64,000 bases of DNA from an uncultured Acidobacteriota bacterium (GTDB lineage: Bacteria > Acidobacteriota > Vicinamibacteria > Vicinamibacterales > CAVPJW01). Where the stretch lies: contig CAWGYQ010000007.1 in NCBI GenBank assembly GCA_963826865.1, forward strand, positions 278,665-342,664, read 5' to 3'. The notes below the pieces were generated by a model, which worked only from the letters and a program-made list of their open reading frames with translations, was not told the DNA's origin and ran no database searches. This document shows positions 12,137-64,000 of the stretch, one piece after another. The translations under genes and the position numbers were made by a program. How positions within the stretch are numbered: position 1 is the first letter of the stretch; every line of letters starts with the position of its first letter.

Positions 12137-12142
12137 TATAAT
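12137..12142 (+). promoter_or_regulatory. Candidate -10 hexamer (TATAAT) for the MoxR/vWA cluster
   Basis: A perfect TATAAT ends 12 nt before ATG 12155, with no Shine-Dalgarno between them. That implies a very short or leaderless 5' UTR. I found no convincing -35. Confidence 0.35.
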
Positions 12143-12154
12143 GGCGACACCTCA

Positions 12155-33772: not shown

Positions 33773-34600
33773 TTAGCCGAATCGGCCGGTCACGTAGTCT
33801 TCTGTCAGCTTTTCGGCCGGGGCCGTGAAAATCTGTCCGGTCCGGTCGTACTCGATCAGTTTCCCGAGCCAGAAAAACGCGGTGTAGTCGGAAACCCTGG
33901 CCGCCTGCTGCATATTGTGGGTGACGATGACGATCGTGTAGTCGCGCTTCAGCGTGTAAATCAGTTCCTCGATGTGCTGCGTCGCGATCGGGTCGAGCGC
34001 CGACGCGGGCTCGTCCATCAGCAGGATTTCGGGACGCACGGCCAGCGCGCGAGCGATGCACAGCCGCTGTTGCTGACCGCCTGAGAGCGCCAGCGCCGAG
34101 TCGTGGAGCCGATCGCTCACTTCGTCCCAGAGCGCCGCCTGTTTGAGGCTCTCTTCCACGCGCGCCGCGGTCTCCGACCGCGAGCCGGCCATGCCATTGA
34201 TGCGCAGGCCATAGGCGATGTTCTCGAAAATGGTCTTTGGAAACGGGTTCGACTTCTGGAAGACCATGCCGACGCGGCGCCGAAGCTGGACGACATCCAC
34301 GCCAGGGCCGTAGACATCGGTGCCGTCGATGAGCACCCGTCCCTCCACGCGCGTGTCAGCAATGATGTCGTTCATCCGGTTCAGCGTGCGCAGGAAGGTG
34401 CTCTTGCCACAACCCGAGGGGCCGATGAATGCCGTGACCAGGTTGGCGCGAATCTCGATGCTGATCTGATGGAGCGCCGCCTTCGGGCCGTAGAAGAAAT
34501 CGAGGTTCTGCACCGCGATCTTCACGGGCTTGCTGCCGGTGTCCTCGGTGGCCCGGGTGGCTATGCCGCTGAGCGACGCGACGCTCGACGTGGGCGTCAT
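33773..34600 (-). CDS. pstB: Phosphate ABC transporter ATP-binding protein PstB
   Basis: Start set at ATG 34600 (MTPTSS…), overlapping the pstA stop (ATGA). Has Walker [10 protein letters not shown], the signature [14 protein letters not shown] and Walker B ILLMDEP. The upstream extension in the track ORF is low-complexity. Confidence 0.95.
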
Positions 34601-35502
34601 GACCACCGCCGGCGCTGATAGCGGTCGCGCAGCCAGATGGCCGTGGCGTTCATGGCCAGCAGCAGCACGAGCAGCACGATGATGCCGGCCGCCGCGTTCT
34701 GCGCGAAATCGGCCTGTGGACGCGACACCCAGTTGAAGATTTGGATTGGCAGCACCGTGAACGGCGACCACGGGCCATCGGGCAGGAACGGCACGTAGGT
34801 CAGGGCGCCGATCGCGATGAGCGGCGCCGTTTCGCCGATGGCCCGGGACATGGCCAGGATCAGTCCGGTGAGGATGCCCGGCGCGGCAACCGGCAGCACC
34901 TGGTACCAAATCGTCTGCCACTTGGTCGCGCCCAGCGCGTACGAGCCCTCTCTCAGAGAGGGCGGCACGGCTCGAATCGCCTCGCGCGTCGCGAGGATGA
35001 TGACCGGCAGCGCCAGTAGGGCAAGCGTCGCGGCGCCTGCCAGCACGCTGCGCCCGAGGGCCAGCGTGCGGACGAACAACCCGAGTCCGAGCAGACCGTA
35101 GATGATCGAGGGTACCGCGGCCAGGTTCGAGATATTGATCTCGATGAGCCGCGCCAGGCGGCTCCGCCCGCCGTACTCCTCGAGGTAGATCGCGGCGGCA
35201 ATGCCAATCGGCATCGCGATGAGCCCGGTCAGCGCAATCACGTAGAGGCTGCCGACCAACGCGGGAAGGATGCCCGCCATCGACGCGCGTCGCGACGGAT
35301 AGCTGGTGAGAAACTGCCAGCTGAGCCGCCCGAGGCCGTCACTGGCGACGTCCCACAGGAGCGCTGCCAGCGACCCGAGCGCCATGGCCAGGATGATGAC
35401 CGTGAGGATCTCGAACAACGGATCCTGCAGCCGGCGCCACAGCGTGCGGCCGTAACGGCCGCGGCCGGCGGCCATGCTCACCGACATCGTCTCGCTCGTC
35501 AC
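34597..35502 (-). CDS. pstA: Phosphate ABC transporter permease PstA
   Basis: 301-aa polytopic ORF with the EAA-loop region [16 protein letters not shown]. Lies between pstC and pstB. Confidence 0.95.
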
Positions 35503-36374
35503 GCGTATTCCTCGCGGTAGCGCTCACGCAGCCACGTGCTGACCAGGTTCAACGTGAACGTGCTGAAGAAGAGCAGCATGCCGACGGCGAAGATCGTGCG
35601 GTACTCGAGCGTTCCGGCCGGCGTGTCGCCGAGACTGACCTGGACGATGTAAGCCGTGAGCGTTTCGACAGGCACCAGCGGGTTGAGCGTCAGGCGCGGC
35701 TGCTGGCCGGCGGCAATCGCCACAATCATGGTTTCGCCGACGGCCCGCGACACCGCCAGGATGAATGCCGCGGTAATGCCAGAAAAGGCCGCGGGCACGA
35801 CCACCCCAAGCGTGGACTGCATACGGGTGGCGCCGAGCGCGTACGCGCCCTCACGCAGGCCGTTGGGAACGCCGTGCATGGCGTCCTCCGAGAGCGACGC
35901 CACGAGCGGCAGAATCATGATCCCCATGACGATGCCAGGACTGAGCGCGTTGAACCCGGAAAGACCGGGCACGAACCGCTGGAGGAGCGGTGTCACGAAG
36001 AGCAGCGCGAAATAGCCGTAGACCACTGTTGGAATGCCCGCCAGGATTTCAAGCATCGGCTTGATAGTGCGCCGCACACCCGGCTTGGCGAACTCGCTGA
36101 GGTAGATCGCGCTCAAGAGACCAGCGGGCAGTGCGACGATCATGGCAATGCCTGACACCAACATCGTGCCGGCAACCAGAGGCAGGACGCCGAACCGCTT
36201 CGTCGCGAACAGCGGGGTCCACTCGACACCGGTCAGGAACTCGACGATGGACACCTCCCGGAAGAACGCCAGGGTTTCGGCGAGCAGGACGACCACGATA
36301 CCGGCGGTGGTGAGGATCGACACCAATGCGCACACGAAGAGCAGGCGCTCGATCAGGGGTTCGATCCGCTTCAT
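35499..36374 (-). CDS. pstC: Phosphate ABC transporter permease PstC
   Basis: 291-aa polytopic ORF with the EAA loop [15 protein letters not shown]. It overlaps both pstS and pstA by 4 nt. Confidence 0.95.
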
Positions 36375-37405
36375 CGCTCGCGCGCCAGCAGATCCTCTAT
36401 CGTGACGCCGACGTTCGAGCCGCTCTCGAACACACTGCCGACCTTGAGCTTCTGGAATCGCTCGGAGGCCAGCTGGTAGCCCGCGTCGCCCAGGGGCACG
36501 TAGCCGACCTCACGAACGAGCGCCGGGGCCTCGTTCAGGTAGTAGTCGACGAACGCCTTCACCTCCGGGCGCTCGACGGAGCGGCGAGCGCCGTAGATGA
36601 AGATGGGTCGTGAGAGTGGCTGATAAGTGCCGTTCTTCACGGTGTCGGCGGTCGGCGCGATGGGGCCCTTGCCGTTGTCATCCTTGCCGTCGTCCACAGG
36701 CACGAGCTTGAGCTTGTCGTGATTGGCCTCGTAGTACGCGAAGCCGAAGAAGCCGAGCGCCAGTTCGTCGTTCGCGATGCCCTGGACGAGCACGTTGTCG
36801 TCCTCGCTCGACGTGAAGTCGCCCCGGCTCGCCTTTGCCTTGCCGACGATTGCCTCGGTGAAATAGTCGTAGGTGCCCGAATCCACCCCGGCGCCGAACA
36901 GATGTATCTCGCGATCGGGCCAGCCCGTGCGAATCTGGCTCCAGCGCGTGATCTTTTCCTGGGCCTCCGGCGCCCACAATTTGCGGAGCTCGGCGACGGT
37001 CATCGACTCCGCCCATGTGTTCTTGGGATTGACCACGATGGCCAGGCCGTCGTACGCGACCGGCAGCTCGATGAAGCTGATGTTTCCTGCCGCGCAGGCC
37101 GCTCGTTCGCTGGCGCTGATCGGACGCGACGCGTCGGCCACGTCGATTTCGCCGCGGCAGAATTTCTGGAAACCGCCGCCGGTGCCCGAAATGCCAACCG
37201 TCACCTTCGTTCCGGGATTGGCGCGCTGGAACTCTTCAGCCACGGCTTCGGTGATGGGATAGACGGTGCTCGATCCGTCCACGGTGATGATCTGCGGATC
37301 GACGCCGGTCGTGGCACCGGGAGCGGGCGCACCGCCTCCGCAGCCGGCTGTCAGCACCGCGGCGAGCCCGAGGGACAAGGGCATGCCTGGCAAACGTATG
37401 CTCAT
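36371..37405 (-). CDS. pstS: Phosphate-binding lipoprotein PstS
   Basis: Start set at ATG 37405 ([24 protein letters not shown], lipobox). Has periplasmic-binding motifs DGSSTVYP and [10 protein letters not shown]. Confidence 0.9.
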
Positions 37406-47427: not shown

Positions 47428-48564
47428 TCACGGTACGGCGGCCTCCGCGGGCGGGACGAGCAGCGCGATTGGTCGGCCCGCCGCGGGATTGTGTTCCGAG
47501 TAGTCGAATCCCAGGAGCGCGGCCATCGTGGCCGCGATCTGATTCTGGTAGAGAGGTGTGAGGGTTGCCCATTCACCGCGCCGTTCGCTGTCCGGAGAAG
47601 CCAGAACGAGCCAGATGTTCTCGGCGCCGCTGATCCGGGCGCCGTGGCTGTGCCAGTCGCGCCCGCGCATGCCACGTCCGTGATCCGTCGTGACGACCAG
47701 CGCTGTCGTTCCCCGATACTGATCGATCGACTGGAGCGTGTCCCAGAGCTGACGGAGATAGCCGTCGAGGTGCGCCAGCGATTCGAGCACCCGATCATAG
47801 CGCTTGATGTGGGCCCAGTCGTCGGTTTCGTCGAACGCGATATAGAGCACACGCGGACGGGTGGTTTCCAGGTACGCGCGCGCGAAGCGGAACGTCAAGG
47901 CATCGTAGCGGACGTCTTCCCAGGTGTTGGGAATTTCGGCCTGCAGGTCGCTCAGCGCGCGCACGACGGGATCGGGATGGTCGAACGGCTCGGGCCCGGC
48001 GCTCACGGTGGTGGTGCCGGGCGTGTGCTCGACGATTTGGCGAAACGTGCCCCAGGATCCAAACGTCGCGATCTCCCGCTGGTCGAGGCCCATCTTCGTG
48101 CGCAGGTATTCCAGGACGGTCGCATACGGGTTCTGAAGCGGCTCGTTGCCCTTGATGACGTCGTCGTGCGGCTGGCCCGTCAGGATCTCCGAGTACCCCG
48201 GGTATGACACACGGTGACGATTCGTCACGAGGACACGGCTGCCGCGTCGTTCGTTGCCCGCAATCGATCCGTGCTCGCGGAGCAGCGTGTCCCAGAGAAA
48301 CGGCATGAGGCGGCGGCGCCTGTCCTCGGGAGTCGGAGCGTCGAAGCGAGCCGTGATAGCGGTGTAGAGCTTTCGGATCGCGGGCGTACTCTCAGCGCTC
48401 GCTGCGTCGAGAATCTGCCGGTCGAGCCCGCCGAAGATCTCCTGCGTGCGCACGCCATCGAACGTCACGAGCACGAGGTTCTGTGTGCGCCGTTGGGTCG
48501 TGACCCCAGTGCCAGCCACGATCACCAGCGCAAGCATTCCCCCGAGCCAGAGTCCTCTTCTCAT
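47428..48564 (-). CDS. Alkaline-phosphatase-superfamily enzyme (type I phosphodiesterase/nucleotide pyrophosphatase-like), secreted
   Basis: Start set at MRRGLWLGGMLALVIVAG. Has LVLVTFDGVR near the N-terminus and VVTTDHGRG...WHSHG near the C-terminus, typical of AP-superfamily metal sites. Confidence 0.7.
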   Translation of the reverse strand: MRRGLWLGGMLALVIVAGTGVTTQRRTQNLVLVTFDGVRTQEIFGGLDRQILDAASAESTPAIRKLYTAITARFDAPTPEDRRRRLMPFLWDTLLREHGSIAGNERRGSRVLVTNRHRVSYPGYSEILTGQPHDDVIKGNEPLQNPYATVLEYLRTKMGLDQREIATFGSWGTFRQIVEHTPGTTTVSAGPEPFDHPDPVVRALSDLQAEIPNTWEDVRYDALTFRFARAYLETTRPRVLYIAFDETDDWAHIKRYDRVLESLAHLDGYLRQLWDTLQSIDQYRGTTALVVTTDHGRGMRGRDWHSHGARISGAENIWLVLASPDSERRGEWATLTPLYQNQIAATMAALLGFDYSEHNPAAGRPIALLVPPAEAAVP

Positions 48565-48734
48565 ATCTGCACCTCGTGGCGCATCGCGGCACGCCGGCAC
48601 AGCTTACCGCAGGGTCAACTTTTTACGTCGACTTCATCCTGTCGAGGCGGACTCGTTACCGACGGGCTTCAAACTGCGGGCATGGCGAGGTCTCTGGCAC
48701 TCGCTCGATCGCATCCTGGGCAGGGCGCCAGGCA

Positions 48735-49473
48735 GTGACGCTCGTATGCAGCGTCATTGTCTGTGCATTCAACGAAGAACGGCACATTGAAGCGTGCCTT
48801 CACTCGCTGCTCGCGCAGACTCGCCGCCCGGACGAAGTCCTCGTCGTCAACAACGCCAGTACCGATCGCACGGCCGAGCTCGCGGGCCGCATTCCCGGCA
48901 TCCGGGTCGTGAGCGAACCGCGCAAAGGCCTGGTCCTGGCTCGTGAAGCCGGCCGGCGTGCGGCATCCGGCGACGTGCTCGCCTACGTGGACGCCGACTG
49001 TCGAGCGCCGCTCTACTGGCTGGAGCGCGTCGAGCAACATTTCATCGCGGCGGGGTGTCTCGCCGCCGTCAGCGGGGGATATCGCTTCTACGACTGGGAT
49101 CTCGCCAGCCGCGTGCTCGTGCGCGCCTACGACCATCTGGTGGCGCCCATCGGTCATTTCCTGGTTCAGGACGTACTGCGATTGGGCGCAATTCTTTACG
49201 GTGGCAACTTTGCGGTCAGACGGCGCGCGCTCGAGGCGATTGGCGGCTTCGACACCTCCATCGATTTTCACGGCGAGGACACCAATCTCGGGCGACGCCT
49301 TGCCGCGGTCGGCCGCGTGCGGTTGAGCCACCGCTGCTATCTGTACACGTCGGCCCGACGGTATCGGGCGATGGGCCGCGCGCGCGTATTCCGTCTGTCA
49401 CTTCGCAAACTTCTGCTCAGAAATCCTGCGGCATCGTCCCGCGGATCGCACGCATCTGGACGTGAGGACCTGA
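48735..49473 (+). CDS. Family 2 glycosyltransferase; probable frame switch near 49372-49386
   Basis: GTG start (VTLVCSVIVCAFNEERHI). Has GT2 motifs NNASTDRT, YVDADC and GGNFAVRR. After ...SARRYRAMGR the track frame turns low-complexity and overlaps the PHP gene. The +1 frame reads AYSVCHFANFCSEILRHRPADRTHLDVRT* and stops at 49471-49473, 1 nt before ATG 49475. Confidence 0.7.
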
Positions 49474-49474
49474 G

Positions 49475-50221
49475 ATGCCGGGATACGAGCCGTTTCTGTT
49501 GTGCGATTTTCATGTCCACACGCAGTGGAGCGACGGCCGTCTGACGATCCGGGACGTCGTGGATCTCTACGGGCAGACGGGCCGCTTCGACGTGATCGCC
49601 ATCACCGACCACATTCTGCAGAAACGAGATCTCCTTGCGCGCGCGGGGCGGCTCGCCACGCTGGGATACCGGCGGTTCTCGCTGACCGAGGACCGGTTTC
49701 GAGCCTATCTGCAGGAAATCGCGGACGAGGGGCGTCGTGCTCGGCGCGAATATGGGCTCGTCGTCATCCCCGGGGCGGAGATTACCCAGAACCACCTGCG
49801 CCCGCGCAAGAACGCGCACATCATCGCACTCGACATCAAACAGTTCATCAGCGCGGATCAGGATGCCGAGGCCATCCTGAAGGAGATCAGGCGGCAGGAC
49901 GCCGTGAGCATCGCCTGCCATCCTCACCATCGCACCACCAGGCGCATCGAGATCAGCACCTGCTATCTCTGGGACCACCGCAAGCAACTCTCGAATCTCG
50001 TGGACGTCTGGGAGGCAGCGAACCGCGACGACTTGTTCTCGGTGACGAGCCTGAAACATTACCCTTACGTCGCGAACAGCGACTTTCACAAGCCCAAGCA
50101 TCTGTACTCGTGGAAGACGTTGTTGAGGTGCCGCAAGGACTGGGAGTCCATCAAGGCTGCGCTCAGGGCCAACGTAGACATTGCCATTACCCTGTACCGG
50201 AATGGTTCATGCGCGGCCTGA
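49475..50221 (+). CDS. PHP-domain metal-dependent phosphoesterase
   Basis: 248-aa ORF. Has CDFHVHTQWSDG (HxH), VIAITDH and IACHPHH. Confidence 0.8.
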   Translation: MPGYEPFLLCDFHVHTQWSDGRLTIRDVVDLYGQTGRFDVIAITDHILQKRDLLARAGRLATLGYRRFSLTEDRFRAYLQEIADEGRRARREYGLVVIPGAEITQNHLRPRKNAHIIALDIKQFISADQDAEAILKEIRRQDAVSIACHPHHRTTRRIEISTCYLWDHRKQLSNLVDVWEAANRDDLFSVTSLKHYPYVANSDFHKPKHLYSWKTLLRCRKDWESIKAALRANVDIAITLYRNGSCAA

Positions 50222-52300: not shown

Positions 52301-52387
52301 CGCCGTGAGGCGAACATACGGTAACCGTGATGTGACGAAACGGTTAAATCGAGTACAATTTCACGGATTTTTTTGATAGGAGTACGC

Positions 52388-53008
52388 TTGCGTTTTCGCC
52401 TCATCCCGCGCAACGAGAAATTCTTTGCCGACTTCGTGTCGTTTTCGGAAGAGCTCCGGGCCGGCGCCCGCCTGCTCGAGGAGATGCTCGCCGGCGACCA
52501 GCCGCGCTGGGACAAGGCGGAGGAGGTGAAGGAAATCGAGCACCGCTGCGACAACCTCACCCACGAGATCATTCAGCGGCTCAACCGCTCGTTCATCACG
52601 CCGATTGACCGCGAGGACATCTATGCCCTCGCCAAGTCGCTCGACGACATCATGGACGCGATTGACGATTCGGCCACGGCGCTCCGGATCTACCAGATTG
52701 CGCACGTGCGGTTTGGCGCCCGCGAGATGGCTCACATCATCTCAGCGTCGACGGACCAGGTGCAGATGGCGCTGGCCGCCATGGAGCGCCATCGCGACGG
52801 GGTGCGCGAACGGACTGTGGAGATCAACCGCTTGGAGAACGAAGCCGATCGGCTGCATCAGAAGGCGCTCAGCCGTCTGTTCGACGAGGAGCGTGACCCG
52901 ATCGCGGTCATCAAGTGGAAGGAGATTCTGGATTTTCTCGAAAGCGCCACCGATCGCTGCGAGGACGTCGCGAACGTGCTCGAAGGCGTCGTCGTCAAGC
53001 ACGCCTGA
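52388..53008 (+). CDS. DUF47 (PhoU-like, YkaA/PitR-type) phosphate transport regulator
   Basis: The conserved N-terminus RFRLIPRNEKFF begins at TTG 52388, which is preceded by AGGAG (52378-52382). The track ORF opens at TTG 52373. The gene lies 6 nt upstream of pitA, the usual pairing. Confidence 0.85.
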   Translation: MRFRLIPRNEKFFADFVSFSEELRAGARLLEEMLAGDQPRWDKAEEVKEIEHRCDNLTHEIIQRLNRSFITPIDREDIYALAKSLDDIMDAIDDSATALRIYQIAHVRFGAREMAHIISASTDQVQMALAAMERHRDGVRERTVEINRLENEADRLHQKALSRLFDEERDPIAVIKWKEILDFLESATDRCEDVANVLEGVVVKHA

Positions 53009-53014
53009 GATCGG

Positions 53015-54016
53015 ATGGACACTCAGCTGATCCTCGTCGGGGCGATCATCCTGGTCGCGCTCATTTTCGACTACATCAACGGCTTTCACGACGCCGCCAA
53101 TTCGATTGCGACCGTGGTGTCCACGCGGGTGCTCACGCCAGGCAAGGCGGTGGTGTGGGCCGCCTTCTTCAACTTCGTGGCGGCCTTCGGATTCGGCACG
53201 GCCGTCGCCAGCACCGTCGGCGCCGGCATGATCGACATCAACGTCGTCACCTTTGCCGTGATTTTCTCCGGGCTCGTCGGCGCCATCGTCTGGGACCTCA
53301 TCACGTGGTATTTCGGGCTGCCCACCAGCTCCTCGCACGCGCTGATCGGCGGCTACGCCGGCGCCGCCATCACCCGCGCCGGCTTCTCGGCGATCATCGT
53401 CTCGGGATGGACGAAGACGCTGATCTTCATCGTGCTGGCTCCGCTCATCGGCCTCGTGCTCGGGTTCCTGCTGATGGTGTCGATCTTCTGGATGATGCGA
53501 TCGGTTCGTCCCTCAAGGGTGGACGCCTCGTTTCGACGCCTCCAGCTCGGGTCGGCGGCGCTCTACAGCCTCGGCCATGGGGCCAACGACGCACAGAAGA
53601 CCATGGGTATCATCGCCGGCGCGCTCTTTGCGGGCGGCTATCTCCAGGTCTTCGAGATTCCGTTCTGGGTCGTGCTGGCAGCGCACGCCGCCATCGCGCT
53701 GGGCACGCTCTCGGGCGGATGGCGGATCATTCATACGATGGGTTCGAAGATCACGAAGCTGCAGCCGGTGGGCGGGTTCGCAGCCGAGACGGCCGGTGCG
53801 ATCACGCTGTTTACCGCCACCAGTCTCGGCGTACCCGTCAGCACCACCCACACCATCACCGGCGCGATCGTCGGAGTCGGGTCGGTGCGCCGGATGTCCG
53901 CCGTACGGTGGGGAGTGGCCGGCCGAATCGTCTGGGCGTGGATTCTGACCATTCCAGCCGCCGCGCTCATTTCCGCCGCGACGTTTTCGCTGTTGAGGCT
54001 CGCCGGCGCCAGCTAG
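53015..54016 (+). CDS. pitA: Inorganic phosphate transporter, PiT family
   Basis: 333-aa polytopic ORF with both PiT signatures (NGFHDAANSIATVVST and LGHGANDAQKTMGII). Confidence 0.95.
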   Translation: MDTQLILVGAIILVALIFDYINGFHDAANSIATVVSTRVLTPGKAVVWAAFFNFVAAFGFGTAVASTVGAGMIDINVVTFAVIFSGLVGAIVWDLITWYFGLPTSSSHALIGGYAGAAITRAGFSAIIVSGWTKTLIFIVLAPLIGLVLGFLLMVSIFWMMRSVRPSRVDASFRRLQLGSAALYSLGHGANDAQKTMGIIAGALFAGGYLQVFEIPFWVVLAAHAAIALGTLSGGWRIIHTMGSKITKLQPVGGFAAETAGAITLFTATSLGVPVSTTHTITGAIVGVGSVRRMSAVRWGVAGRIVWAWILTIPAAALISAATFSLLRLAGAS

Positions 54017-54028: not shown

Positions 54029-55828
54029 TCACGTCTCGACGTGCGCGGGCCTCGAGCCCGTCGATTCCGGCTCGTCCCGCATGGGCAGACGCACGACGAA
54101 CGTCGCCCCCCCGCCCGGCCGATTGGTGGCTTCCACACGCCCGCCGTGGAGCTCCACGAGATGGCGAACGATAGCCAGACCGAGACCGGTGCCCCCCGGA
54201 TCGCGGCTCCGCGACTTGTCCACGCGATAGAAACGCTCGAAGACGCGTCGCAGATCTCCCTCGGGTAGGCCGGGACCTTCATCCGACACGCGGATTTCGA
54301 TCTGGTCACGCAGCGGAATCGCCTCGAGCAGGATGCGCGACCGTTCGGGCGAGTAGGTCGACGCGTTCTGGACCAGGTTGCGTATCACGTCGTGCAGCTT
54401 GCCGGCATCCGCCATCACTCGGGTGGCCGAGGAGTCGAGGCGCATCTCGACGTGCTGTTCTTTCGCTGAGAGCGGCGCGGCCAGCTCGGTGACGACACCG
54501 CTCAGGAGCGTGTCGAGCTCGCAGGGCACGAGATCCAACACTTCATGACCGGCGTCCAGCCGCGCGAGCCGCAGGAGGTCCTTGACCAGGCGCTCCATCC
54601 GGGTCGTGTGCCGCGAGATGATTTCGAGAAAGCTGCGACGTTCGTCCCCATCGGGCGGATCGTCGAGCAACGCCTCCACGTAGCCTCGGATGGCCGTCAG
54701 TGGTGTCCGCAGCTCGTGGGACACGTTGGCGACGAAGTCGCGCCGAACCTGATCGGCGCGGCGCAAATCGGTGATGTCATGCAGCACGAGTACGGCGCCG
54801 TGCCCTGACGAGGATCGCACCGGGGCGGCGCGAGCCACGAAGGTGCGCGTGTCGGCGGCGAGCGCGACTTCCAGGCCCGCCGGAGCCTGGCCCTGCAATG
54901 CGGCACCAACCTGCGCGGCGATACCGGGATGCCGCACGGCTTCCAGGTAGTGCCGTCGATCGCCGCTCTCCGTTAGCATCAGCATGCGCCGCGCGGCGTC
55001 ATTGACGAGCTCCAGCCGGCCATGGTCGTCCACGACCAGCACTCCTTCGACCATCCCCGACAGAATGGCCTGCATGCGCGCGCGATCGCGCCCGAGCTCG
55101 TCCAGGCGCCGCGACAGCTCGCTGACCGTGCCATCGAGCGCACGCGCCACCATGCCCAGCTCGTCGTCGCCCACATCGGCCGGTGCGCGTGGAATCTCGC
55201 CCTGCGCGTAGCGACGCGCGGCATCGGCGATGGCCTGCACGCGGCGGCCGAGAGGTGCGGAAAAGGCCAGGGCGACCACGGCGGCCGCGGCGAGGGCCCC
55301 TGCAAGTGCGCCCAGCGTGGCATTTCGGATCGCCCGCTGCTGGCGGTCGATATCGGTCAGCGGAACAGCGAGCCGCACGATCGCAATCGAAGCGTGTCTG
55401 ACCGGCGCCGCGACATAGAGCAGGTCGGCATCGACTGTGGTGCTGTAGCGTCTCGTGATCCCAATGCCGCGTTCACGCGCCGCGACGATTTCGGGGCGGT
55501 CATTGTGGTTCTCGAACCGATCCAGATCGGGCCCGTCTCCAGCGGAGTCCGCTACGACGTGACCATCAGGACCGATCAAGGTCACTCGTGCGCCCACGTA
55601 TTGGGCGATGCGATCGGCTTCGTCGTCGAGATCAGTTGACGACGAGACTGGTTCGCGGTGGGCGAGCAGTTCCGCCGCGAGGCGTACCTCGGACACCAGG
55701 TTGCTCTCCGTGCTGGCGAGCGTCTGCCGACCGACCCATCGCGACATGAGCACGGACGCCATCCCGAGACCCACGAGGGCGGCCGACAGGGCGGCAATGA
55801 AGAGTCGCGCTCGAAAGCCAAGCCTCAT
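54029..55828 (-). CDS. PhoR-like sensor histidine kinase (TM-HAMP-PAS-HisKA-HATPase)
   Basis: Start set at ATG 55828 ([22 protein letters not shown]). Has the H-box [15 protein letters not shown], the N-box [11 protein letters not shown] and G-boxes DEGPGLP and [10 protein letters not shown]. Lies 16 nt downstream of the response-regulator gene. Confidence 0.9.
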
Positions 55829-55844
55829 CGGAGTCGTGCCGCCC

Positions 55845-56537
55845 TCATCGCGGCGGAGCCGGATCCTGGAGCTTGTAGCCGAACTGCTTGACGGTGACGA
55901 TCGCCTGCTGCAGCATCGGCAGCTTCTCACGCAGCCGCCGCACGTGGACGTCGACCGTGCGAGTGCCGCCGGTATACCGGTAGCCCCAGACATCCGACAG
56001 CAGCAGGTCGCGCGAAAGCAGACGACCCCGATGGCGCAGGAAATACTCGAGCAACGTGAATTCCTTGGCCGTGAGCTGCACGTCCTTGTGATGGTCGGTC
56101 ACGATGTGCCGGTCGCCGTCCAGGACAATGGTGCCGTAGCGAATCAGCGCAGAGGAATCGGCGGATCGTCCCGCCCGGCGGAGCAGCGCACGGACCCGCG
56201 CCACCAGCTCGTTCGGGCTGAACGGCTTGGTCAGATAGTCGTCAGCGCCGAGCTCCAGGCCGCCGATGCGGTCGGACTCCTCGGCTTTGGCCGTCACCAT
56301 GATGATTGGCACGGCGGCGGTGGTCCGGTCGCTGCGAAGAGCCCGGCAGATATCGAAGCCGTCCACGTCCGGCAGCATGAGATCGAGGACGAGAATGTCG
56401 GGGGGGCGCCGTCGCACCTGCGCGACAACGTCGCGGCCGGAGTGGACGACATCGGTCGTGTAGCCGGCCTTCTGCAGGTACCGGTCGATGAGGGCCGCGA
56501 TATCAGCGTCGTCTTCGACGACAAGCGCGCGTGGCAT
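55845..56537 (-). CDS. PhoB/OmpR-family response regulator
   Basis: 230-aa ORF. Has REC ([24 protein letters not shown]) and a winged helix ([27 protein letters not shown]). Confidence 0.9.
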
Positions 56538-56571: not shown

Positions 56572-57282
56572 TCAGCCGCCGACGGCCCGGCCCGTCAGCC
56601 ACCGGAGAGGCGCGCCTCGGAGCGTGCGCCGAAGATCATCATCCGCCTGATACGGCCTGTCGGGAACCACCCGCGCCTGGACTCGAAGATCGACCGTCCG
56701 ACCGAGAAAGGGATCGGGCACGATCGTCAACGTGTCGCCAGAGAGTATAAACCGGTGCTCCCGGTCGTCGTGCGGTTCCTTCCAGCCATTGCAGAAGACG
56801 AGCGACGCCAGGTCTGCCAGACGGAGCAGGTCGTATGCGCGATCGAACGATCGGCGCGGCGCGCCAGTCAGGGCGCCGGCTGCGGCGAGCCACCGATCGC
56901 GCGCGGTCGTCAGGCGCTCGAAGAACGAGGACCAGCCGGGCTCGCTCGCGAAATGCGCATAGATGGTGAGCGCATGCTGAGCGATGAGGGCGCCCGCAAG
57001 AGGATGGCACATCCCGAGTCGCGCCGCCGCGCGCGGCCACATCGCCTGGCGAGTGGATTCGGGCGCCGTGACGAAGTCAGCCGGACGCCCGTTTGCCAGC
57101 ACCGTGGGGCGCGTATCCGATTCGAGCCAGCCGTTGTCGTGCTGGCGCGTGGCATACAACAGGACCGCCCGCCAGTCGCCCACTGCATCCGTGCCCCAGC
57201 GCTCGAGGATTTCAGCGGCCAGGGCTGCGTGATCAGGTTGAGTGATCAGCCAGAGCTCCTCGCCCGCCGGTCGCACAATCAC
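56572..57282 (-). CDS. DUF3891-like protein
   Basis: 236-aa ORF. The N-terminus ...WLITQPDHAALAAEILERWG matches my memory of the DUF3891 family. No search was possible. Confidence 0.55.
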   Translation of the reverse strand: MIVRPAGEELWLITQPDHAALAAEILERWGTDAVGDWRAVLLYATRQHDNGWLESDTRPTVLANGRPADFVTAPESTRQAMWPRAAARLGMCHPLAGALIAQHALTIYAHFASEPGWSSFFERLTTARDRWLAAAGALTGAPRRSFDRAYDLLRLADLASLVFCNGWKEPHDDREHRFILSGDTLTIVPDPFLGRTVDLRVQARVVPDRPYQADDDLRRTLRGAPLRWLTGRAVGG

Positions 57283-58061: not shown

Positions 58062-59096
58062 ATGCCCCGTTCCCGTCCGTTGGCTCTCACCCTGTCGTTC
58101 ATCGGCCTTATCCTTGTCGGGCTTCCGACAGCTGCTCCGCAGTCAGGAGTCGACGGCCGCGGCCCACAGGTAGGCCAGCTCGTTCCAGACTTTGCGGGTC
58201 AGGATCAGACTGGCCGGAACCAGACACAGACGACGATTCTCGGTCCCAACGGCGCAGTCCTGGTCTTCCTGCGTTCGGCGGACTGGTGCCCGTATTGCCG
58301 CACGCAGCTCGTCGACCTTCAGCGCGGGTACGAGTCGCTTCGCGCCAACGGCTTGGGGCTCGCGGTCATCAGCTACGATTCGCCGGCGGTTCTGACCGAG
58401 GCTGCGTCGCGGTTCGGCATTACCTTCCCGCTCATCTCCGATCCGCGGTCGGCCATCATCAAGCGCTACGGCCTGCTGAGCGACCAATACTCACCAGGAG
58501 ATCGGGCCTACGGGGTACCGGACCCCGGCACCTTCGTGATCGATCGAACCGGCAAGGTCACCTCGCGGCATTTCGGTGATCAGTACCAGGATCGCGTGAC
58601 GGTTGGAAGCCTTTTGGTCAGGATGGGCGCACCGGCCGGTGCCACGGGCAAGCCGATCATGGCGGACTATCTGCGGATCACGCCATCGGCGAGTGCCGCG
58701 GCCGTGGCGCCGGGACAGAGGTTTTCGCTCGTCCTCGACGTGACGCCCGCACCGCGCATCCACGTCTACGCACCCGGCAACGCCGACTACATCCCCATCA
58801 ACTTGCGCGTGGCGCCGAGCCCGTTGCTCGAGCTTCACGAAGCCGAGTACCCGGAGGGCGAGGAATACCTGTTCGAACCGTTGAACGAGCGCGTGCAGGT
58901 CTACCAGAAGCCCTTTCGGGTCATTCAGGACGTCACCCTCGGCGCGACAGCCGAGGCGCAGGCGGCCATCAGTCGGGCGAGCGAGCTTCGAATCGAGGGC
59001 GAGGTCGAGTATCAGGCCTGCGACGAAAACGTGTGCTTTTCTCCCCGGACCGTCAAGGTCACCTGGACGGTCGCCGTGCAGGCGCTGGCGCGCTGA
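58062..59096 (+). CDS. Redoxin (AhpC/TSA-thioredoxin-like) fused to a DsbD-N-terminal-like domain
   Basis: 344-aa ORF with a signal peptide. Has LVFLRSADWCPYCRTQL (CxxC) in a peroxiredoxin-like fold. The C-terminal beta-sandwich-like region ends with YQACDENVCFSP. Confidence 0.75.
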   Translation: MPRSRPLALTLSFIGLILVGLPTAAPQSGVDGRGPQVGQLVPDFAGQDQTGRNQTQTTILGPNGAVLVFLRSADWCPYCRTQLVDLQRGYESLRANGLGLAVISYDSPAVLTEAASRFGITFPLISDPRSAIIKRYGLLSDQYSPGDRAYGVPDPGTFVIDRTGKVTSRHFGDQYQDRVTVGSLLVRMGAPAGATGKPIMADYLRITPSASAAAVAPGQRFSLVLDVTPAPRIHVYAPGNADYIPINLRVAPSPLLELHEAEYPEGEEYLFEPLNERVQVYQKPFRVIQDVTLGATAEAQAAISRASELRIEGEVEYQACDENVCFSPRTVKVTWTVAVQALAR

Positions 59097-59149: not shown

Positions 59150-60874
59150 TCAGTTCGTCCGCTCGACCGGTTCCTCGAACAGCTCGCGCTCGAGGCCCAC
59201 GGTCTTCCACTCTGAGGCGTCCCGCCGGAAATACACGGTGATAGGCGCCATCCATTCCGGATGGTCGGGATGCATGCTGCTGATTCTCAGCGCCGCGAAC
59301 TCGCTGTCATGGAGTAAGGGCGGCACGAGGATGCCCGGAGTCGTGGACTGTGTCTCGTCGCCAACGGGCCTCGTGATTCCAGTGGCGTTGTCGAAGCTGG
59401 ACCAGGCATACCAGTACGACAAAGCGGGAGTGGCCACCCCCGCGTCGACGGCGGCATTTCGAAAGCTCAGCGAGCCGTTCGCAGCGAGCGAGAAATCCAC
59501 CAGCGGATTGAGCTGATTGAGCCAGAGCCGGCACACCTTGTCACGGCGCTCGATGAGCACATCGGTGAGGTAGTCGGTGACTGCCGGGTCGGTGAATTCT
59601 CCCACCCCCACGAGGGCGCGAATCGCGTCGTCGGAGAACGCCGCCACGCGGCGCGCAGCCCAGAAGAGATCGTCCGCGCGGGCGTTCTCGTACGCCGGGT
59701 TCGGATAGTCCGGTTTCCACATCGCTGGTTGAAAGTAATCGGATTCGATTCGCCCGGCCGCAGGCAGATCGGGGTACTTCACCTTGAGCCACGGCCGGAC
59801 ATACAGGCCCAGCGTGAGCATGGTCAGCAGCGTCGGGCGCCGCTCCCAGACGTACTCGTTTCCGGGCCGCCGGCTCTGGGCCGCAATGCTGCCGCTCCCG
59901 AGCGTGGACCCGAAATCGAGCAGGTGGTGTTTGACGAGGCGACGGCCGCCGGTGTCGACGAGCGCGTCGAACGAGTTGCTGCTGCGCCATTCGTCGTGGT
60001 TGACCCAGGCGGCGAGCACGCGGATCCCGCGCAACTCGCGACGGTGTTCGTGAGGGAAGATGTCGTTCGGATCGTCCGATCGCGTGCCGTGGTAACGGAA
60101 CGGGCCCAGCGGCTTGCCTGCGACCGCGCGGCTGGCCACCATGCGGTACGATCCGTCGCTTTTCTGCGCGACGCGGCGGAACAACTCGTCGAGATCGCGC
60201 TGCTGAACATTGTGGACATGGCCGTCGGCTCGAGTGACCTGCGCGCCCGGTTCGATCACCAGATCGCTCGGTCTGAGCGTGGTGATGTAGTTTTCCGGAA
60301 CGTGGTAGCCGAAGGCGTGGAAGATCTTGGTCGAGATCACCTCGGCGCCCGTCGCCATTTCAGGGTTCGTCGGCGGATCGAACTTCACGAAGTAGATCTC
60401 GCCGAGGGAGTCGCGGAGGGTCATGCCTGGCGAGATCCCCTCGTTCTTGCCCGAGATGACGGTCAATTTTCCTGGAGCCGGACCCTCGCCGGTATCGGGT
60501 CCCCTGACCAGCTCCTCGAGCGTCAGGGGCCGCATGACGAGTCGATTGGTGAACCAGCTCGAGTCGGGGACCTCGTCGAGCGTGTTCAAATTCATCGCCC
60601 GCCGCGGTGTGCGGTCGCCGGCGGTGCCGAAACTGTTCTCGAAGAAGTCGAACGAGCCGCTGACATCCCAGGCCTGAACCATGGAGGCATCTTCTGTCTC
60701 AGGATCGCGCGCGAGGGGGTCGTCAGGATAGAAGCGTGGCGTATTGGCGCGGGCGCCATCGCCCGCGGCCATGAGCAGCGCAACGCAAAGTAAGGCAAGA
60801 AGCGCACTCGCGTGCGCCGCGCGTCGTGTGCACCGGCTTTCGTTCGGCTCGGGCCTGCTCATGGCGATGTTCAA
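59150..60874 (-). CDS. Large secreted protein of unknown family (copy 1), with HD..N / DFG kinase-like motif pair
   Basis: 574-aa ORF. The TTG start at 60874 overlaps the upstream stop, and there is an alternative ATG at 60862. Has a signal peptide (ALLALLCVALLMAAGDGARA). Conserved blocks are FYPDDP, LDEVPDSSWFTNR and DPPTNPEMATGAE. Later comes LAAWVNHDEWRSSNSF...KHHLLDFGSTLGSG. Confidence 0.6.
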   Translation of the reverse strand: MNIAMSRPEPNESRCTRRAAHASALLALLCVALLMAAGDGARANTPRFYPDDPLARDPETEDASMVQAWDVSGSFDFFENSFGTAGDRTPRRAMNLNTLDEVPDSSWFTNRLVMRPLTLEELVRGPDTGEGPAPGKLTVISGKNEGISPGMTLRDSLGEIYFVKFDPPTNPEMATGAEVISTKIFHAFGYHVPENYITTLRPSDLVIEPGAQVTRADGHVHNVQQRDLDELFRRVAQKSDGSYRMVASRAVAGKPLGPFRYHGTRSDDPNDIFPHEHRRELRGIRVLAAWVNHDEWRSSNSFDALVDTGGRRLVKHHLLDFGSTLGSGSIAAQSRRPGNEYVWERRPTLLTMLTLGLYVRPWLKVKYPDLPAAGRIESDYFQPAMWKPDYPNPAYENARADDLFWAARRVAAFSDDAIRALVGVGEFTDPAVTDYLTDVLIERRDKVCRLWLNQLNPLVDFSLAANGSLSFRNAAVDAGVATPALSYWYAWSSFDNATGITRPVGDETQSTTPGILVPPLLHDSEFAALRISSMHPDHPEWMAPITVYFRRDASEWKTVGLERELFEEPVERTN

Positions 60875-62076
60875 AATACCGGTCCGAACTTGAAGAACAC
60901 CTGGGTCCCCTCCTGGGCGCCGGTGGCGATGTCTACGCGGAAGAAGACCGCCTTGGACGTGCTCAGCCGGAAACCGATCCCCACGGCCGATTCGAGATCC
61001 TGCAGGTCGAGGTGCCGATAGTCGTCGGTGACTTTCCCGGCATCGACGAACAGTGCCATGTCGAGGCCCGACAACACTTCCCAGCGGTATTCCGCGTTCA
61101 GGACGAGGGCATTCTCGTCACGATAGCGGAACTCGTTCAGGCTGCGCACCGTATAGGCGCCGCCGATCGTGGGCAGCATGTAGAACGGAATCGAATTGCC
61201 CGGCGCATTGTTCGTCATCAAGACCATGCCGCGCAGCACGAAGACGCGCTTCTTGTCGAACACCGGGACGAAATGCAACGCCTGGGCGGTAAAGCGGTTG
61301 AACGTGTAGCGGTGGAAGTCCTGGTCCTTCAAATTGGCGAAGTCGACTCGATAGTGCACGCCGCTTCGAGCGTTCCTCGGCTCATCCCGCGAATCGACGT
61401 CCACGAAGAACGACATGTGGCGGTAGTCTGGCTGGTCCGCCAGACCGGGAGCCGTCGTGTCGTCGAAGATCTGCTCGATTGAAGGCATCGCGGTATCGGT
61501 GCCCGGGTCGATGTTCACGTTCAGCACGCCCAGCTGGATGCCGGTGCTCATCCAGGAGACGGGTCTGAAGCCGGCGGTCCCCATGTACCCGAGGCCCTCA
61601 TAGAGATAGTTGCTTCGGTTCTCTTCCAGCGAGTCGCTGCCGATCCCGAAGTAGTCTTCCTGGGGATTGTGCTGGGCCCTCACATGGAGGCCGAAGAGCA
61701 GTCGATCCTGGTACACGCTCGGGAAGTCGATCTGGGCCTCGGCGAGCCGGTAGCCCTTCGCCGTGAAGGCCGTGGAGGTCTTGAAGAGGCCCTGAGTCTC
61801 GAAGAGATGCACGCGGAAGCCGACGCCGACGGCGAATCCTGAGCCGGTGGAGAGGCCACCGAAGCGGGGGTAGAACCCGTTGCCGTTGATCAGACGCTCG
61901 GCCAGACGGCCGCGTTTGGCATGGAGTAGGAGGCGCTCGATGCGTCCCGGCTTGTAGGGCTCGAGCTGGCGGGCCTTCTCCTGGCGGAGCTGTTCAAGCG
62001 CCTGCTCCCGGGTGTCTTGAGCCCTGGCAGGGACGGCGGCCAGCAGGAGGGCCGCCATCGCGACCACGCGACGCAT
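60871..62076 (-). CDS. Omp85/surface-antigen (D15)-type outer-membrane beta-barrel without POTRA domains (copy 1)
   Basis: Start set at ATG 62076 (MRRVVAMAALLLAAVPARAQD signal). Has a short coiled-coil and then the barrel. Omp85-type C-terminal motifs are IGGAYTVRSLNEFRYRDENALVLNAEYRW, ALFVDAGKV and a terminal ...FFKFGPVF. Confidence 0.75.
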   Translation of the reverse strand: MRRVVAMAALLLAAVPARAQDTREQALEQLRQEKARQLEPYKPGRIERLLLHAKRGRLAERLINGNGFYPRFGGLSTGSGFAVGVGFRVHLFETQGLFKTSTAFTAKGYRLAEAQIDFPSVYQDRLLFGLHVRAQHNPQEDYFGIGSDSLEENRSNYLYEGLGYMGTAGFRPVSWMSTGIQLGVLNVNIDPGTDTAMPSIEQIFDDTTAPGLADQPDYRHMSFFVDVDSRDEPRNARSGVHYRVDFANLKDQDFHRYTFNRFTAQALHFVPVFDKKRVFVLRGMVLMTNNAPGNSIPFYMLPTIGGAYTVRSLNEFRYRDENALVLNAEYRWEVLSGLDMALFVDAGKVTDDYRHLDLQDLESAVGIGFRLSTSKAVFFRVDIATGAQEGTQVFFKFGPVF

Positions 62077-62133
62077 CTCAGTGACGACTGTAATTGACCG
62101 AGCCGACGCCCTGCAAGCGCGGTGTTCGCTGGC

Positions 62134-62163
62134 TTGACACACGTGGACAGGCCCGCGTACGCT
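62134..62163 (+). promoter_or_regulatory. Candidate sigma70-type promoter TTGACA-N18-TACGCT in the divergent intergenic region
   Basis: TTGACA (62134-62139) and TACGCT (62158-62163) lie about 40 nt upstream of ATG 62204, which has GGAGG at 62195-62199. Confidence 0.4.
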
Positions 62164-62203
62164 TTCCTGTTTTCATGTCGTTTTTTGTGTCCCTGGAGGT
62201 TTG

Positions 62204-63418
62204 ATGATTCGCTGGGGCCCGCTCGGGCTCAGCGCCGCCCTAATCCTCGCCATTCCGATCCCGGCCGCCAACGCACAATCGCGACAGGAGGAGATCGCGC
62301 AGCAGCGCCAGAAGAAGGCCGAGGCGCTTCAGCCCCCCTCGCGAAACGTGTTCGAAGCCGTCGTGTTCGCCATCGAGGACGACATGATCCTCGATCGGAT
62401 TCTGAACCCGACGCGGAACTTCTATCCGCAGATCGGGGGCTTGGGCGAGGGAGCCGGCTTCGGCGGAGGTCCGGGTTACCGTTTTCTGATCGACGCCGTG
62501 GATTTCCGGGCGTCGGCGGCCTATTCGTTCAAAGACTACTGGTTCGCCGAGGTGCGGGCGCTCTTTCCTCACCTCGCCAACGATTGGCTCGTCGCGGAGT
62601 TTCGCGCCCGGCGCCGGTCGGCGCCGCAGGAGGATTTCTACGGTGTGGGTCCCGATTCCTCCGTCGACGATCGGTCGAATTTCGCCCTGCACGAAACGCT
62701 CGTGAGCGGGGCGGCCGCGCTGCAGCCCATCTCGCGGTTCCTGCTGGGAGGGCGCGTCGAGTACATCAACCCCAACATCGGGTCGGGCACCGACTCGCTC
62801 TTTCCTTCGACCGACGAGGTCTTCACGCCGGCCGATACGCCCGGGCTCGATGAGCAACCCGAGTTCGTCCGCACGCAGGGCTTCATCACATTCGATTACG
62901 GCGACCCTCCGCTCAATCCGGTCTTTGGCGGCCGCTACACCGTGACCGTGAACCGGTACCAGGATCGGAATCTCGATGCGTATTCATTCAACCGGATCGA
63001 CGTGGACCTGAGGCAGTACATCCCGTTCCTGCTGCGGAGCCACGTCATCGCCCTGCGAGGGTATCTGTCAGTGTCGAATCCGGACGAGGGCCACGAGGTG
63101 CCGTTCTATCTCCAGCCGATGCTGGGTGGCGCCTACTCGGCCCGCGGCTTCCGCTCGTTCCGCTTCCGCGATCGCAATCTGCTGCTCCTCCAGGCAGAGT
63201 ACCGGTGGGACATCAACGCGCTGATGACCGGTGCGCTCTTCTGCGACGCCGGCAAGGTGGCGCGGCGACAGAAGGACCTCGATTTCGAGGATATGAAAAG
63301 CGACTGTGGCTTCGGCGTTCGGTTCGGTACCAGGCAGGGCGTCAAGATGCGGCTCGATCTGGCGCTCGGGAGCGGCGAGGGCACGCGCTTTCTGTGGAGA
63401 TTCGACAATGTGTTTTAG
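62204..63418 (+). CDS. Omp85/surface-antigen (D15)-type outer-membrane beta-barrel without POTRA domains (copy 2)
   Basis: The ATG at 62204 follows GGAGG. Has a signal peptide (LSAALILAIPIPAANA), a coiled-coil and then the barrel. Motifs are LGGAYSARGFRSFRFRDRNLLLLQAEYRW, ALFCDAGKV and a terminal ...LWRFDNVF. It is a paralog of 60871-62076. Confidence 0.75.
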   Translation: MIRWGPLGLSAALILAIPIPAANAQSRQEEIAQQRQKKAEALQPPSRNVFEAVVFAIEDDMILDRILNPTRNFYPQIGGLGEGAGFGGGPGYRFLIDAVDFRASAAYSFKDYWFAEVRALFPHLANDWLVAEFRARRRSAPQEDFYGVGPDSSVDDRSNFALHETLVSGAAALQPISRFLLGGRVEYINPNIGSGTDSLFPSTDEVFTPADTPGLDEQPEFVRTQGFITFDYGDPPLNPVFGGRYTVTVNRYQDRNLDAYSFNRIDVDLRQYIPFLLRSHVIALRGYLSVSNPDEGHEVPFYLQPMLGGAYSARGFRSFRFRDRNLLLLQAEYRWDINALMTGALFCDAGKVARRQKDLDFEDMKSDCGFGVRFGTRQGVKMRLDLALGSGEGTRFLWRFDNVF

Positions 63419-64000
63419 GCACCGGCTGAAGCTGACGTCCGGGCGCGGCGCGGTGGGTGCCGCTCTCCTCGGACTGTCGCTTGCCCCCATCCTGTCCGGC
63501 GCGGCGCCGAAGTTCTATCCCGACGACCCTATTGCCGTCGACCGGGACACGCTGCTCGATGCCACGGGGACCCGGTCCATGGAGCTCAGCCAGGGATACG
63601 ACTTTCTCGAGAATACCTATGCCTCGCCGGGAGACGCCAGTCCAATTCGCGCGCTGAACGTCAATACGATTGATGAGGTCCCTGATTCGAGCTGGTTCAC
63701 CAACCGCATCGGCCATCGTCCGCTGTCGCTGGCCGAGATTGCGCGCGGCCCGGACAAGTTCGAGACCCTGAATATCGGTGAGTGGGTGGCTGTCGCCGGC
63801 AAGCCCACCGGGTTCCAGCCAGGCTTCCGGGCCATGGATGCGCGGAATCCCGGACAACTTTATCAACTTGAAGTCGATCCGCCGTCAAACCCGGAGATGG
63901 CTTCCGGCGCCGAGATGATCGGCACCGCCGCCTATCACGCGCTCGGCTACAACGTCGTCGACAACTACGTCGTGTACATCCGTCGTGAACAGGTGACCAT
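63408..64000 (+). CDS. Large secreted protein of unknown family (copy 2), 5' partial - runs off the window
   Basis: Not in the ORF track because there is no stop before the window end. ATG 63408 overlaps the upstream barrel gene by 11 nt. It reads MCFRHRLKLTSGRGAVGAALLGLSLAPILSGAAPKFYPDDPIAVD...NTIDEVPDSSWFTNR...DPPSNPEMASGAEMIG. By eye this is roughly half identical to the N-terminus of 59150-60874. Confidence 0.7.
   Translation, partial: MCFRHRLKLTSGRGAVGAALLGLSLAPILSGAAPKFYPDDPIAVDRDTLLDATGTRSMELSQGYDFLENTYASPGDASPIRALNVNTIDEVPDSSWFTNRIGHRPLSLAEIARGPDKFETLNIGEWVAVAGKPTGFQPGFRAMDARNPGQLYQLEVDPPSNPEMASGAEMIGTAAYHALGYNVVDNYVVYIRREQVT

Follow-up and report, generated by a model that had tools for sequence, protein, structure and literature searches.

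Several described systems join an Omp85 barrel to an exported partner or enzyme. In two-partner secretion (type Vb; FhaC/FHA and CdiB/CdiA), the gene for an Omp85 barrel and that for a Sec-exported partner lie in one operon, and BamA, TamA, and TpsB proteins carry one to five N-terminal periplasmic POTRA domains. In type Vd PlpD and in the Omp85-metalloprotease fusions, the barrel is linked in function to a globular enzyme, which is fused to it N-terminally via POTRA. The barrel-only “noNterm” Omp85 proteins (Heinz & Lithgow 2014, PMC4104836; Leptospira LIC12252/12254/12258, PMC11358297) are described as signal-peptide proteins of ~400 aa from environmental bacteria, in which one genome can encode several paralogs; no function is known for them. 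Here, we describe a locus at the end of a 64,000-nucleotide stretch of DNA from an uncultured soil bacterium of the Acidobacteriota (contig CAWGYQ010000007.1; the whole stretch is hereafter called the window), where two divergent cassettes, B1-X1 on the minus strand and B2-X2 on the plus strand, each encode a POTRA-less Omp85 barrel (B) and a signal-peptide partner (X) that is predicted to adopt a kinase-like fold.

These cassettes resemble type Vb systems in their operon layout and in that B keeps the loop-6 Arg and the F-x-D-x-G lock motif. They differ from them in that B lacks the POTRA domains of BamA, TamA, and TpsB and in that X is a compact partner of predicted kinase fold without a TPS or beta-helix domain; no Pfam match to the TPS (haemagglutination activity) domain was found in X1, X2, or 63 relatives. 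As in PlpD and the metalloprotease fusions, a globular enzyme would be functionally tied to an Omp85 barrel, but X is encoded by a separate 3′ gene and would belong to another enzyme class. B shares with the noNterm proteins all of the features listed above, but DUF5982 had no match in B1 or B2, and B has a strictly conserved 3′ partner gene, which was not reported for the Leptospira and Cytophagales proteins. Full-text literature searches returned no description of the B-X pairing or of the X family: The component superfamilies are known, and their combination and implied site of action appear to be new.

Two divergent barrel-partner cassettes

An earlier note on this DNA had proposed two paralogous cassettes that diverge from a 127-bp spacer, with overlaps of 4 and 11 nt between barrel and partner genes, and had taken them for an old, retained duplication. 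The open reading frames (ORFs), their starts, and BLASTP agree with this layout (Table 1), and the overlaps (4 nt between the B1 stop and the X1 start; 11 nt between B2 and X2) were reproduced from the ORF starts, where both these values and the spacer length follow from the starts chosen. In BLASTP, the two barrels share 35% identity across 396 aa (E = 5e-79), and X1 and X2 share 45% across the available 187 aa (E = 4e-53). No further copy of B or X was found within the window.

Among the related loci that we fetched (given L-numbers here), L002 has the same order, with X1 and B1 pointing away from B2 and X2, followed by a third cassette, B3-X3. The L002 orthologue of X2 (10001-11668) is full-length and 91% identical to the X2 of the window. 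The third cassette (11514-14584) lies 3′ of X2, and its B3 is spread over two reading frames, which may reflect a frameshift, a pseudogene, or a long-read assembly error. X3 has Glu at the position of the beta3 Lys, as does X2. Because X2 and X3 (56%) and B2 and B3 (43%) are mutually closest paralogs, the B-X cassette duplicates as a unit. Divergent double cassettes were also present in L021 and L067, and several genomes supplied separate loci. Judged from these sequence comparisons, the two cassettes are a real and old duplication of whole units, in line with the paralog identities and the third copy in L002. Within the spacer itself, we found no match to the sigma-70 consensus and no Rfam family; its ~96% identity to the spacer of L002 is too close for footprinting, and its conservation is therefore uninformative.

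The reading of the upstream genes in the earlier note, as Omp85-type barrels without POTRA, was borne out. Both proteins pass the Pfam gathering score of 24 for Omp85 (PF01103), with 40.6 bits for B1 and 48.6 bits for B2, and match no other Pfam family; no POTRA family matched either of them even at E ≤ 1. The models for BamA, TamA, and TamL gave 20 to 26 bits against cut-offs of 297 to 625, and the barrel-only NCBIfam model NF047779 gave 100.7 bits with B1, also far under its cut-off. A POTRA domain cannot fit, since only ~45 mature residues, charged and helix-like, precede the first barrel strand in B1 and B2. The barrel homologs listed (120 of 120) are ~400 to 460 aa long, nearly all of them 400 to 420 aa, and most match PF01103 only; the label BamA that automatic pipelines attach to them is a misnomer. 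An alignment of 181 barrels revealed conservation of the loop-6 Arg (in ARGF in B2 and in VRSL in B1, where the Arg is kept), the strand-13 F-x-D-x-G (FCDAG in B2, FVDAG in B1), and a C-terminal Phe. The first two are the lid-lock motifs of Omp85 proteins, the Arg of loop-6 (V/I)RG(F/Y) and the beta-13 F-x-D-x-G, as described from FhaC and the Leptospira noNterm paralogs (PMC4490367, PMC11358297). Because they are barrel-only and keep these features, B1 and B2 fall into the default noNterm class of Heinz & Lithgow and are, by their profile matches, POTRA-less Omp85 proteins.

The coupling of barrel and partner extends across Acidobacteriota. In 76 loci from this phylum that were fetched with the X2 fragment as query, 75 had a barrel ORF on the strand of X and directly upstream of it, the single exception having only a weak partial X match, so that the synteny by which the earlier note proposed to judge its pairing holds. 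Furthermore, pairwise B identity tracks X identity (Pearson r = 0.84, 61 cassettes), with the paralogs congruent. We infer from this that B is probably the physical partner of X.

A predicted kinase-like fold in the exported partner

A first AlphaFold (AF2) model of X1 drew on 35 close homologs; its catalytic region was poorly modelled (pLDDT 72), and the kinase folds that it matched in Foldseek were not significant. A second AF2 model, from a diverse 63-sequence alignment, took its place and reached a pLDDT of 94 and a pTM of 0.91. Compared with the PDB by Foldseek, this model was closest to CtkA of H. pylori (E = 1.7e-4, probability 1.0, TM 0.52 on target), with further matches to Fam20C/Fam20A, HipT/HipA, Rio2, PINK1, and SidJ, a list made up almost purely of kinase folds. 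The model predicts the bilobal kinase fold by which membership of the PKL (protein-kinase-like) superfamily is judged, with a kinase-like core (~130-345), then a helical region, and an Ig-like C-terminal beta-sandwich (458-563). It has three N-lobe strands (K164 on the third), a helix (173-188), two more strands, and a long loop, after which follow a helix (279-291), a loop (292-300), a hairpin (301-318), and D320-F-G; these elements (beta1-3, alphaC, alphaE, loop, hairpin, DFG) are thus in the order found in kinases.

The conserved residues of the family follow the same order. The motif residues of X1 are K143, K164, D166, E172, E178, H293, E295, R297, N300, H316, and D320-F-G, and the consensus of X has a beta3 Lys, H293-x-D295-x-(R/K)297-x-x-N300, and D320-F-G in canonical kinase order, with a catalytic-loop pattern, H-x-D-x-(R/K)-x-x-N, of the eukaryotic (ePK-like) type. 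Among 113 diverse representatives, K164 was kept in 96, D166 in 107, H293 in 78, D295 in 95, R/K297 in 87, N300 in 99, H316 in 110, and D320 in 109. The earlier note had likewise read the large protein as kinase-like, from an HxD...N loop and a DFG motif, and the model, the Foldseek match to CtkA, these conserved motifs, and the weak HipA_2 matches described below all point the same way. All of the sequence blocks it had quoted were found, namely FYPDDP, (L/I)DEVPDSSWFTNR, DPP(T/S)NPEMA(T/S)GAE, AAWVNHDEWRSSN, and HHLLDFGSTLG, with N300 and D320 of X1 spaced by 20 residues. Its HxD...N loop stands as a conserved arrangement but not in its detail: The Asp column is occupied by Glu295 in X1 and its Vicinamibacterales orthologues (HDE), and D294 of X1 falls in a variable column of the family alignment. 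The loop and DFG residues are kept among homologs, including the L002 orthologue of X2, which retains HDDSRAIN and DFGS.

The note's caveat that the Lys of X1 (IYFVKFD) is Glu in X2 (LYQLEVD) proved to mark a whole subclade. In this X2 subclade, which includes both extra L002 copies, E164 replaces the beta3 Lys and all other motifs are kept, and another subclade has Q/S/T164 and V/I178 and has lost His293, with D295, K297, N300, and D320 kept. X1 itself has K164, with E172 and E178 as candidates for the alphaC Glu. The Lys of the G-K block, which the note had singled out as conserved, is K143 in a G-K-x-x-G turn between the first two strands, and it was present in every motif-variant X that we examined. 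In WNK kinases, the phosphate-binding Lys is relocated, and by analogy, K143 may be a functional phosphate-binding Lys. The most invariant block of X spans residues 263-282, G-T-R-x-D-D-P-N-D-x-x-P-H-E-x-R-R-E-L-R, where D268, D271, H275, R279, and R282 are 100% conserved; it lies ahead of the helix that runs up to the catalytic loop and, by this position, may be a substrate site.

Sequence searches placed X in no named family, and the note had likewise been unable to assign its shared blocks to one. X1 gave nothing meaningful against Pfam, NCBIfam, or PDB sequences, X2 was likewise unmatched, and no match to a non-kinase family, which the note had held would speak against its reading, was found. 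The profile of 63 X sequences returned only spurious Armadillo-design matches from the PDB, and its hhalign comparison with E. coli HipA returned nothing. The comparison with a Hanks-kinase profile was not significant (E = 0.14) and is not counted as evidence; it registers K164 with VAVK, HxDxRxxN with HRDIKPxN, and DFG with DFG. Weak Pfam matches to HipA_2 occurred in 4 of the 63 relatives (E ≥ 7.9e-4), and one relative matched HipA_C at 0.026, under the cut-off. At 90% identity, at least 7,616 clusters belong to the family, and those that bear a name are all “hypothetical”; at 50% identity, 3,746 representatives match, 1,043 of them below 1e-30. Its named sources are Acidobacteriota (Vicinamibacterales, Bryobacterales, Solibacteraceae, and “Marinacidobacterales”).

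In structure, X is best compared with CtkA (H. pylori JHP940) and HipA/HipT, its closest matches by the model, to which the weak HipA_2 and HipA_C signals in relatives also lead; CtkA is moreover an exported bacterial kinase, as X would be. Unlike HipA and CtkA, however, X1 has no significant sequence match to the respective families (PF07804, PF20613), and its loop follows the ePK-like H-x-D-x-K/R-x-x-N. The catalytic loop of HipA-type kinases reads D-x-H-x-K-N. X further differs in its N-terminal wrap, its DDPND...RR block, and its C-terminal helical and beta-sandwich domains. Sequence and model together suggest that X is the founder of a distinct, unnamed kinase-like family and not a member of HipA/CtkA. 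Fam20C and Fam20A are signal-peptide kinase folds that act outside the cytosol, as X would, and they are among its structural neighbours; they depend on nucleotide transport into their compartment, and their active/atypical paralog pair may parallel X1 and X2. However, they are eukaryotic Golgi proteins without a barrel partner and match the fold more weakly (E about 4e-3), and the analogy would be one of function, not of membership.

The N-termini of X1, X2, B1, and B2 all show a basic stretch, then a hydrophobic one, and then an A-x-A-type signal. In 159 of 161 full-length X homologs, a hydrophobic 12-mer, the heuristic by which signal peptides were called here in place of SignalP, was found in the ~30 residues 5′ of the FYPDDP motif. 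Because this hydrophobic region directly precedes the motif, FYPDDP should lie only a few residues from the N-terminus of the mature protein, and the X proteins are probably exported. An apparent natural barrel-X fusion, P0195 (P-numbers denote X-family representative sequences), was set aside, as its Omp85 fragment before X is sub-threshold and has the look of a frameshift or of an artefact of gene calling. Four other representatives (P0153, P0214, P0178, and P0138) carry mutually similar C-terminal extensions of 200 to 600 aa without a Pfam match.

A possible envelope phosphotransfer module and its alternatives

The reading that we favor, and in which our confidence is about evenly balanced, is that X is an extracytoplasmic kinase-fold phosphotransferase with B as its dedicated barrel partner and with nucleotide transporters of the TLC/NTT type as a possible source of its ATP. 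Each cassette would then be an operon for a two-component envelope module. B would insert into the outer membrane as a 16-strand-type Omp85 barrel without POTRA, and X would be exported by Sec, with its signal peptide cleaved just before FYPDDP. As an atypical protein-kinase-like enzyme with a fold nearest to CtkA/HipA and Fam20, X would use D/E295, R/K297, N300, and D320 (of DFG) to transfer a phosphoryl or related group from a nucleotide, presumably ATP, to a putative envelope substrate, with K143, and K164 in most members, holding the nucleotide phosphates. B might either thread X to the surface or hold it docked at the outer membrane's inner face. NTT/TLC-type exchangers could bring ATP into the periplasm against ADP, and signal-peptide PAP2 phosphatases and metallophosphoesterases could reverse the modification made by X. 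X1 (K-type) and X2 (E-type) would be either diverged specialists or an active/regulatory pair.

The proposed accessory functions come from a neighbour survey, in which the flanking ORFs of 75 loci were clustered and the clusters named by Pfam and NCBIfam. TLC/NTT-type nucleotide transporters were present within 6 kb in 20 of the 75 loci, most of them contiguous with B-X and on the same strand, in two forms, a short 12-helix protein and NTT-HEAT. Hanks Ser/Thr kinases with five or six predicted N-terminal membrane helices occurred in 13 loci, PAP2 phosphatases in 8 (directly 3′ of X or, in the case of L031, of an NTT gene standing next after X), calcineurin-like phosphoesterases (the metallophosphoesterases) in 8, and cNMP-binding proteins in 7, with signal peptides on both the PAP2 and the metallophosphoesterase neighbours. 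In the reverse test, with the short NTT as query, X was found in 21 of 80 metagenome loci and in 12 of the 37 that were at least 8 kb long, with NTT-HEAT, kinase, short NTT, B, X, PAP2 as a recurring order. The long TLC-like neighbours, in which TLC is joined to HEAT repeats and after which a cNMP-binding gene comes, have exactly the architecture of the NTT-HEAT(-cNBD) proteins of free-living bacteria, which are known but uncharacterised (Major et al. 2017, PMC5381601), though they are accessory neighbours at other loci and not part of the cassettes in the window; their linkage to B-X appears to be previously undescribed. The gene content suggests a self-consistent system of kinase (X), phosphatase, and nucleotide supply. 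Because an NTT exchanger that faces an ATP-free periplasm would run outward, a periplasmic, barrel-docked X would be favored over surface display, and the frequent linkage to genes for inner-membrane NTT-type transporters and signal-peptide phosphatases speaks for a periplasmic site of action no less than for the surface.

If all of these parts acted together, with X as kinase, B holding or exporting it, NTT proteins pumping ATP, and PAP2 and metallophosphatases opposing it, ATP-dependent phosphorylation would take place outside the cytoplasmic membrane; in this complete form, we consider the proposal doubtful. If true, such a fuelled phosphorylation system would parallel, in bacteria, the Fam20C/ATP-transporter arrangement of the secretory pathway and would provide a first function for the noNterm Omp85 class and for the NTT-HEAT transporters of free-living bacteria. 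To our knowledge, the periplasm is generally taken to be free of ATP and kinases, and the linkage of an exported kinase-fold family to a barrel, and often to exchangers and phosphatases, makes periplasmic or surface phosphorylation directly testable. It also offers a first handle on two orphan classes, the noNterm barrels and the NTT-HEAT transporters, and it would enlarge the kinase-like superfamily by an unnamed family with no fewer than 7,600 clusters, hosted by a soil phylum that ranks among the most abundant and the least understood.

Several findings weigh against this proposal. On the side of X, the Foldseek TM is only moderate (0.5 when normalised to CtkA), no profile-sequence or profile-profile match of X reaches significance, and the invariant block 263-282 has no kinase counterpart. 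The Glu at the catalytic base in the X1 clade and the losses of the beta3 Lys, alphaC Glu, or loop His in subclades mean that canonical ATP handling is not universal in X. On the side of supply, the NTT-like genes score 27 to 65 bits against a TIGR00769 cut-off of 387 and are thus distant members, and neither they nor any PAP2, metallophosphoesterase, Hanks-kinase, or cNMP-binding gene was found in the 64-kb window. We know of no ATP supply to the bacterial periplasm, and ATP there would be of no help to an X that B exports to the surface.

The main rival explanation is the scavenging of phosphorus or nucleotides, where B would pass organophosphates or nucleotides, X would be a periplasmic binder or processor under Pho control, the neighbouring phosphatases would release phosphate, and the NTT proteins would import nucleotides. 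We regard this explanation as somewhat unlikely. It draws on the PhoR/PhoB-like system, PhoU_div, PHO4, and pstSCAB that B-X adjoins in the window and two relatives, on the signal-peptide metallophosphoesterases and PAP2 proteins that follow X elsewhere, and on the fact that all characterised NTTs are importers (PMC5381601). Yet even other X1-type loci, L009 and L010 among them, lack the Pho linkage, and the conserved D295, N300, and D320 point to catalysis beyond binding. No Omp85 barrel with an intact loop-6 lock is known as a solute channel, and, with no scavenging role known for a kinase fold, both the fold and the barrel would be left without a role. The note had suggested a two-partner-secretion-like or surface-display module. 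True two-partner secretion, in which B would move X to the surface or medium as an exo-enzyme or adhesin-like protein (cf. PlpD and TpsA cargo), has in its favor the barrel-then-cargo operon in 75 of 76 loci with its co-diverging cassettes, the conserved motif right at the mature N-terminus of X, and the C-terminal Ig-like beta-sandwich, which is typical of surface proteins; enzyme passengers on Omp85 barrels are also known from the patatin and metalloprotease subfamilies, (PMC4104836, cited in PMC11358297). With B lacking POTRA, X lacking a TPS domain, and X being compact and globular (540 aa), however, we think this fairly unlikely. An X so exported might modify external substrates such as antibiotics or polysaccharide, but outside the cell it would lack a source of ATP, which sits poorly with the conservation of its nucleotide-handling residues and with the linked NTT genes.

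Two further explanations are less likely, given that the catalytic residues are retained, that no immunity gene was found, and that conservation is vertical. X might be a pseudokinase-type scaffold or ligand sensor on B that keeps its motifs for binding only, for which the loss of beta3 Lys, alphaC Glu, or loop His in several subclades, the Glu of X1 at the catalytic Asp position, and the precedents of Fam20A and SidJ among its structural neighbours could be cited; the presence of D295 (or Glu), N300, and D320 in nearly all members, the variant subclades included, is typical of active enzymes and makes this quite improbable. That X is instead a HipA/CtkA-like toxin kinase sent to competitors through B, in the style of contact-dependent inhibition (CDI), we consider very improbable. 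The nearest folds, CtkA and HipA/HipT, are indeed toxins or effectors, and CDI systems do use Omp85 TpsB exporters, but X lacks a long filamentous delivery domain, and the genes downstream of it vary or are convergent and include no conserved small immunity gene. Unlike polymorphic toxins, X is conserved vertically, at ~57 to 60% identity in many Vicinamibacterales, and its divergence follows that of B.

Surroundings of the cassettes

The features of the window are collected in Table 1. The phosphate-regulon-like block beside B-X was found in the same order elsewhere only in L001/L007 and L002, and a Pho-regulon linkage as a general property of B-X was accordingly rejected. A pst operon ~17 kb from the PhoU and PHO4 genes is suggested by two ORFs that resemble the pstC and pstA permeases found in L001. 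At the place of the AhpC/DsbD_N fusion next to X1, L001 has a homolog with DsbD_N only.

Table 1. Coordinates of the cassettes and of other features of the window.
Feature	Position	Strand	Remarks
Two ORFs similar to L001 pstC and pstA permeases	34600-36509	-	
Alkaline-phosphatase-superfamily protein	47428-48600	-	Phosphodiest/Sulfatase matches; upstream of phosphate block
Family-2 glycosyltransferase	48576-49544	+	upstream of phosphate block
Cytochrome P450	50292-51641	+	upstream of phosphate block
PhoU_div	52373-53008	+	
PHO4/Pit	53015-54016	+	
PAS-HisKA-HATPase kinase (PhoR-like)	54029-55993	-	
OmpR-type regulator (PhoB-like)	55845-56537	-	
DUF3891	56572-57282	-	
AhpC/TSA-redoxin + DsbD_N-like fusion	58062-59096	+	signal peptide; convergent with X1
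X1	59150-60874	-	574 aa; TTG start, alternative ATG at codon 5
B1	60871-62076 (ORF 60871-62142)	-	401 aa from likely ATG 62076; N-terminus MRRVVAMAALLLAAVPARA followed by QD
Divergent intergenic spacer	62077-62203		127 bp; presumed site of both promoters
B2	62204-63418 (start 62201 or 62204)	+	404-405 aa; GGAGG 4 nt 5′ of ATG 62204
X2	63408-64000	+	cut by window end; N-terminal 197 codons

At other loci, three metallophosphoesterases that follow X (L028, 4480-5706; L131, 15329-16579; L154, 2476-4044) have a common signal peptide and share an N-terminal segment, Y-x-Y-V-G...L-L-A-W-G-T...G-N-T-I-G, which gave no Pfam match and which we take to resemble the N-domain of purple acid phosphatases. 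The Hanks kinases with membrane helices that stand beside NTT genes (L006, 5688-7343; L039, 11620-13299; L029, 14460-16130; and others) have an unusual layout.

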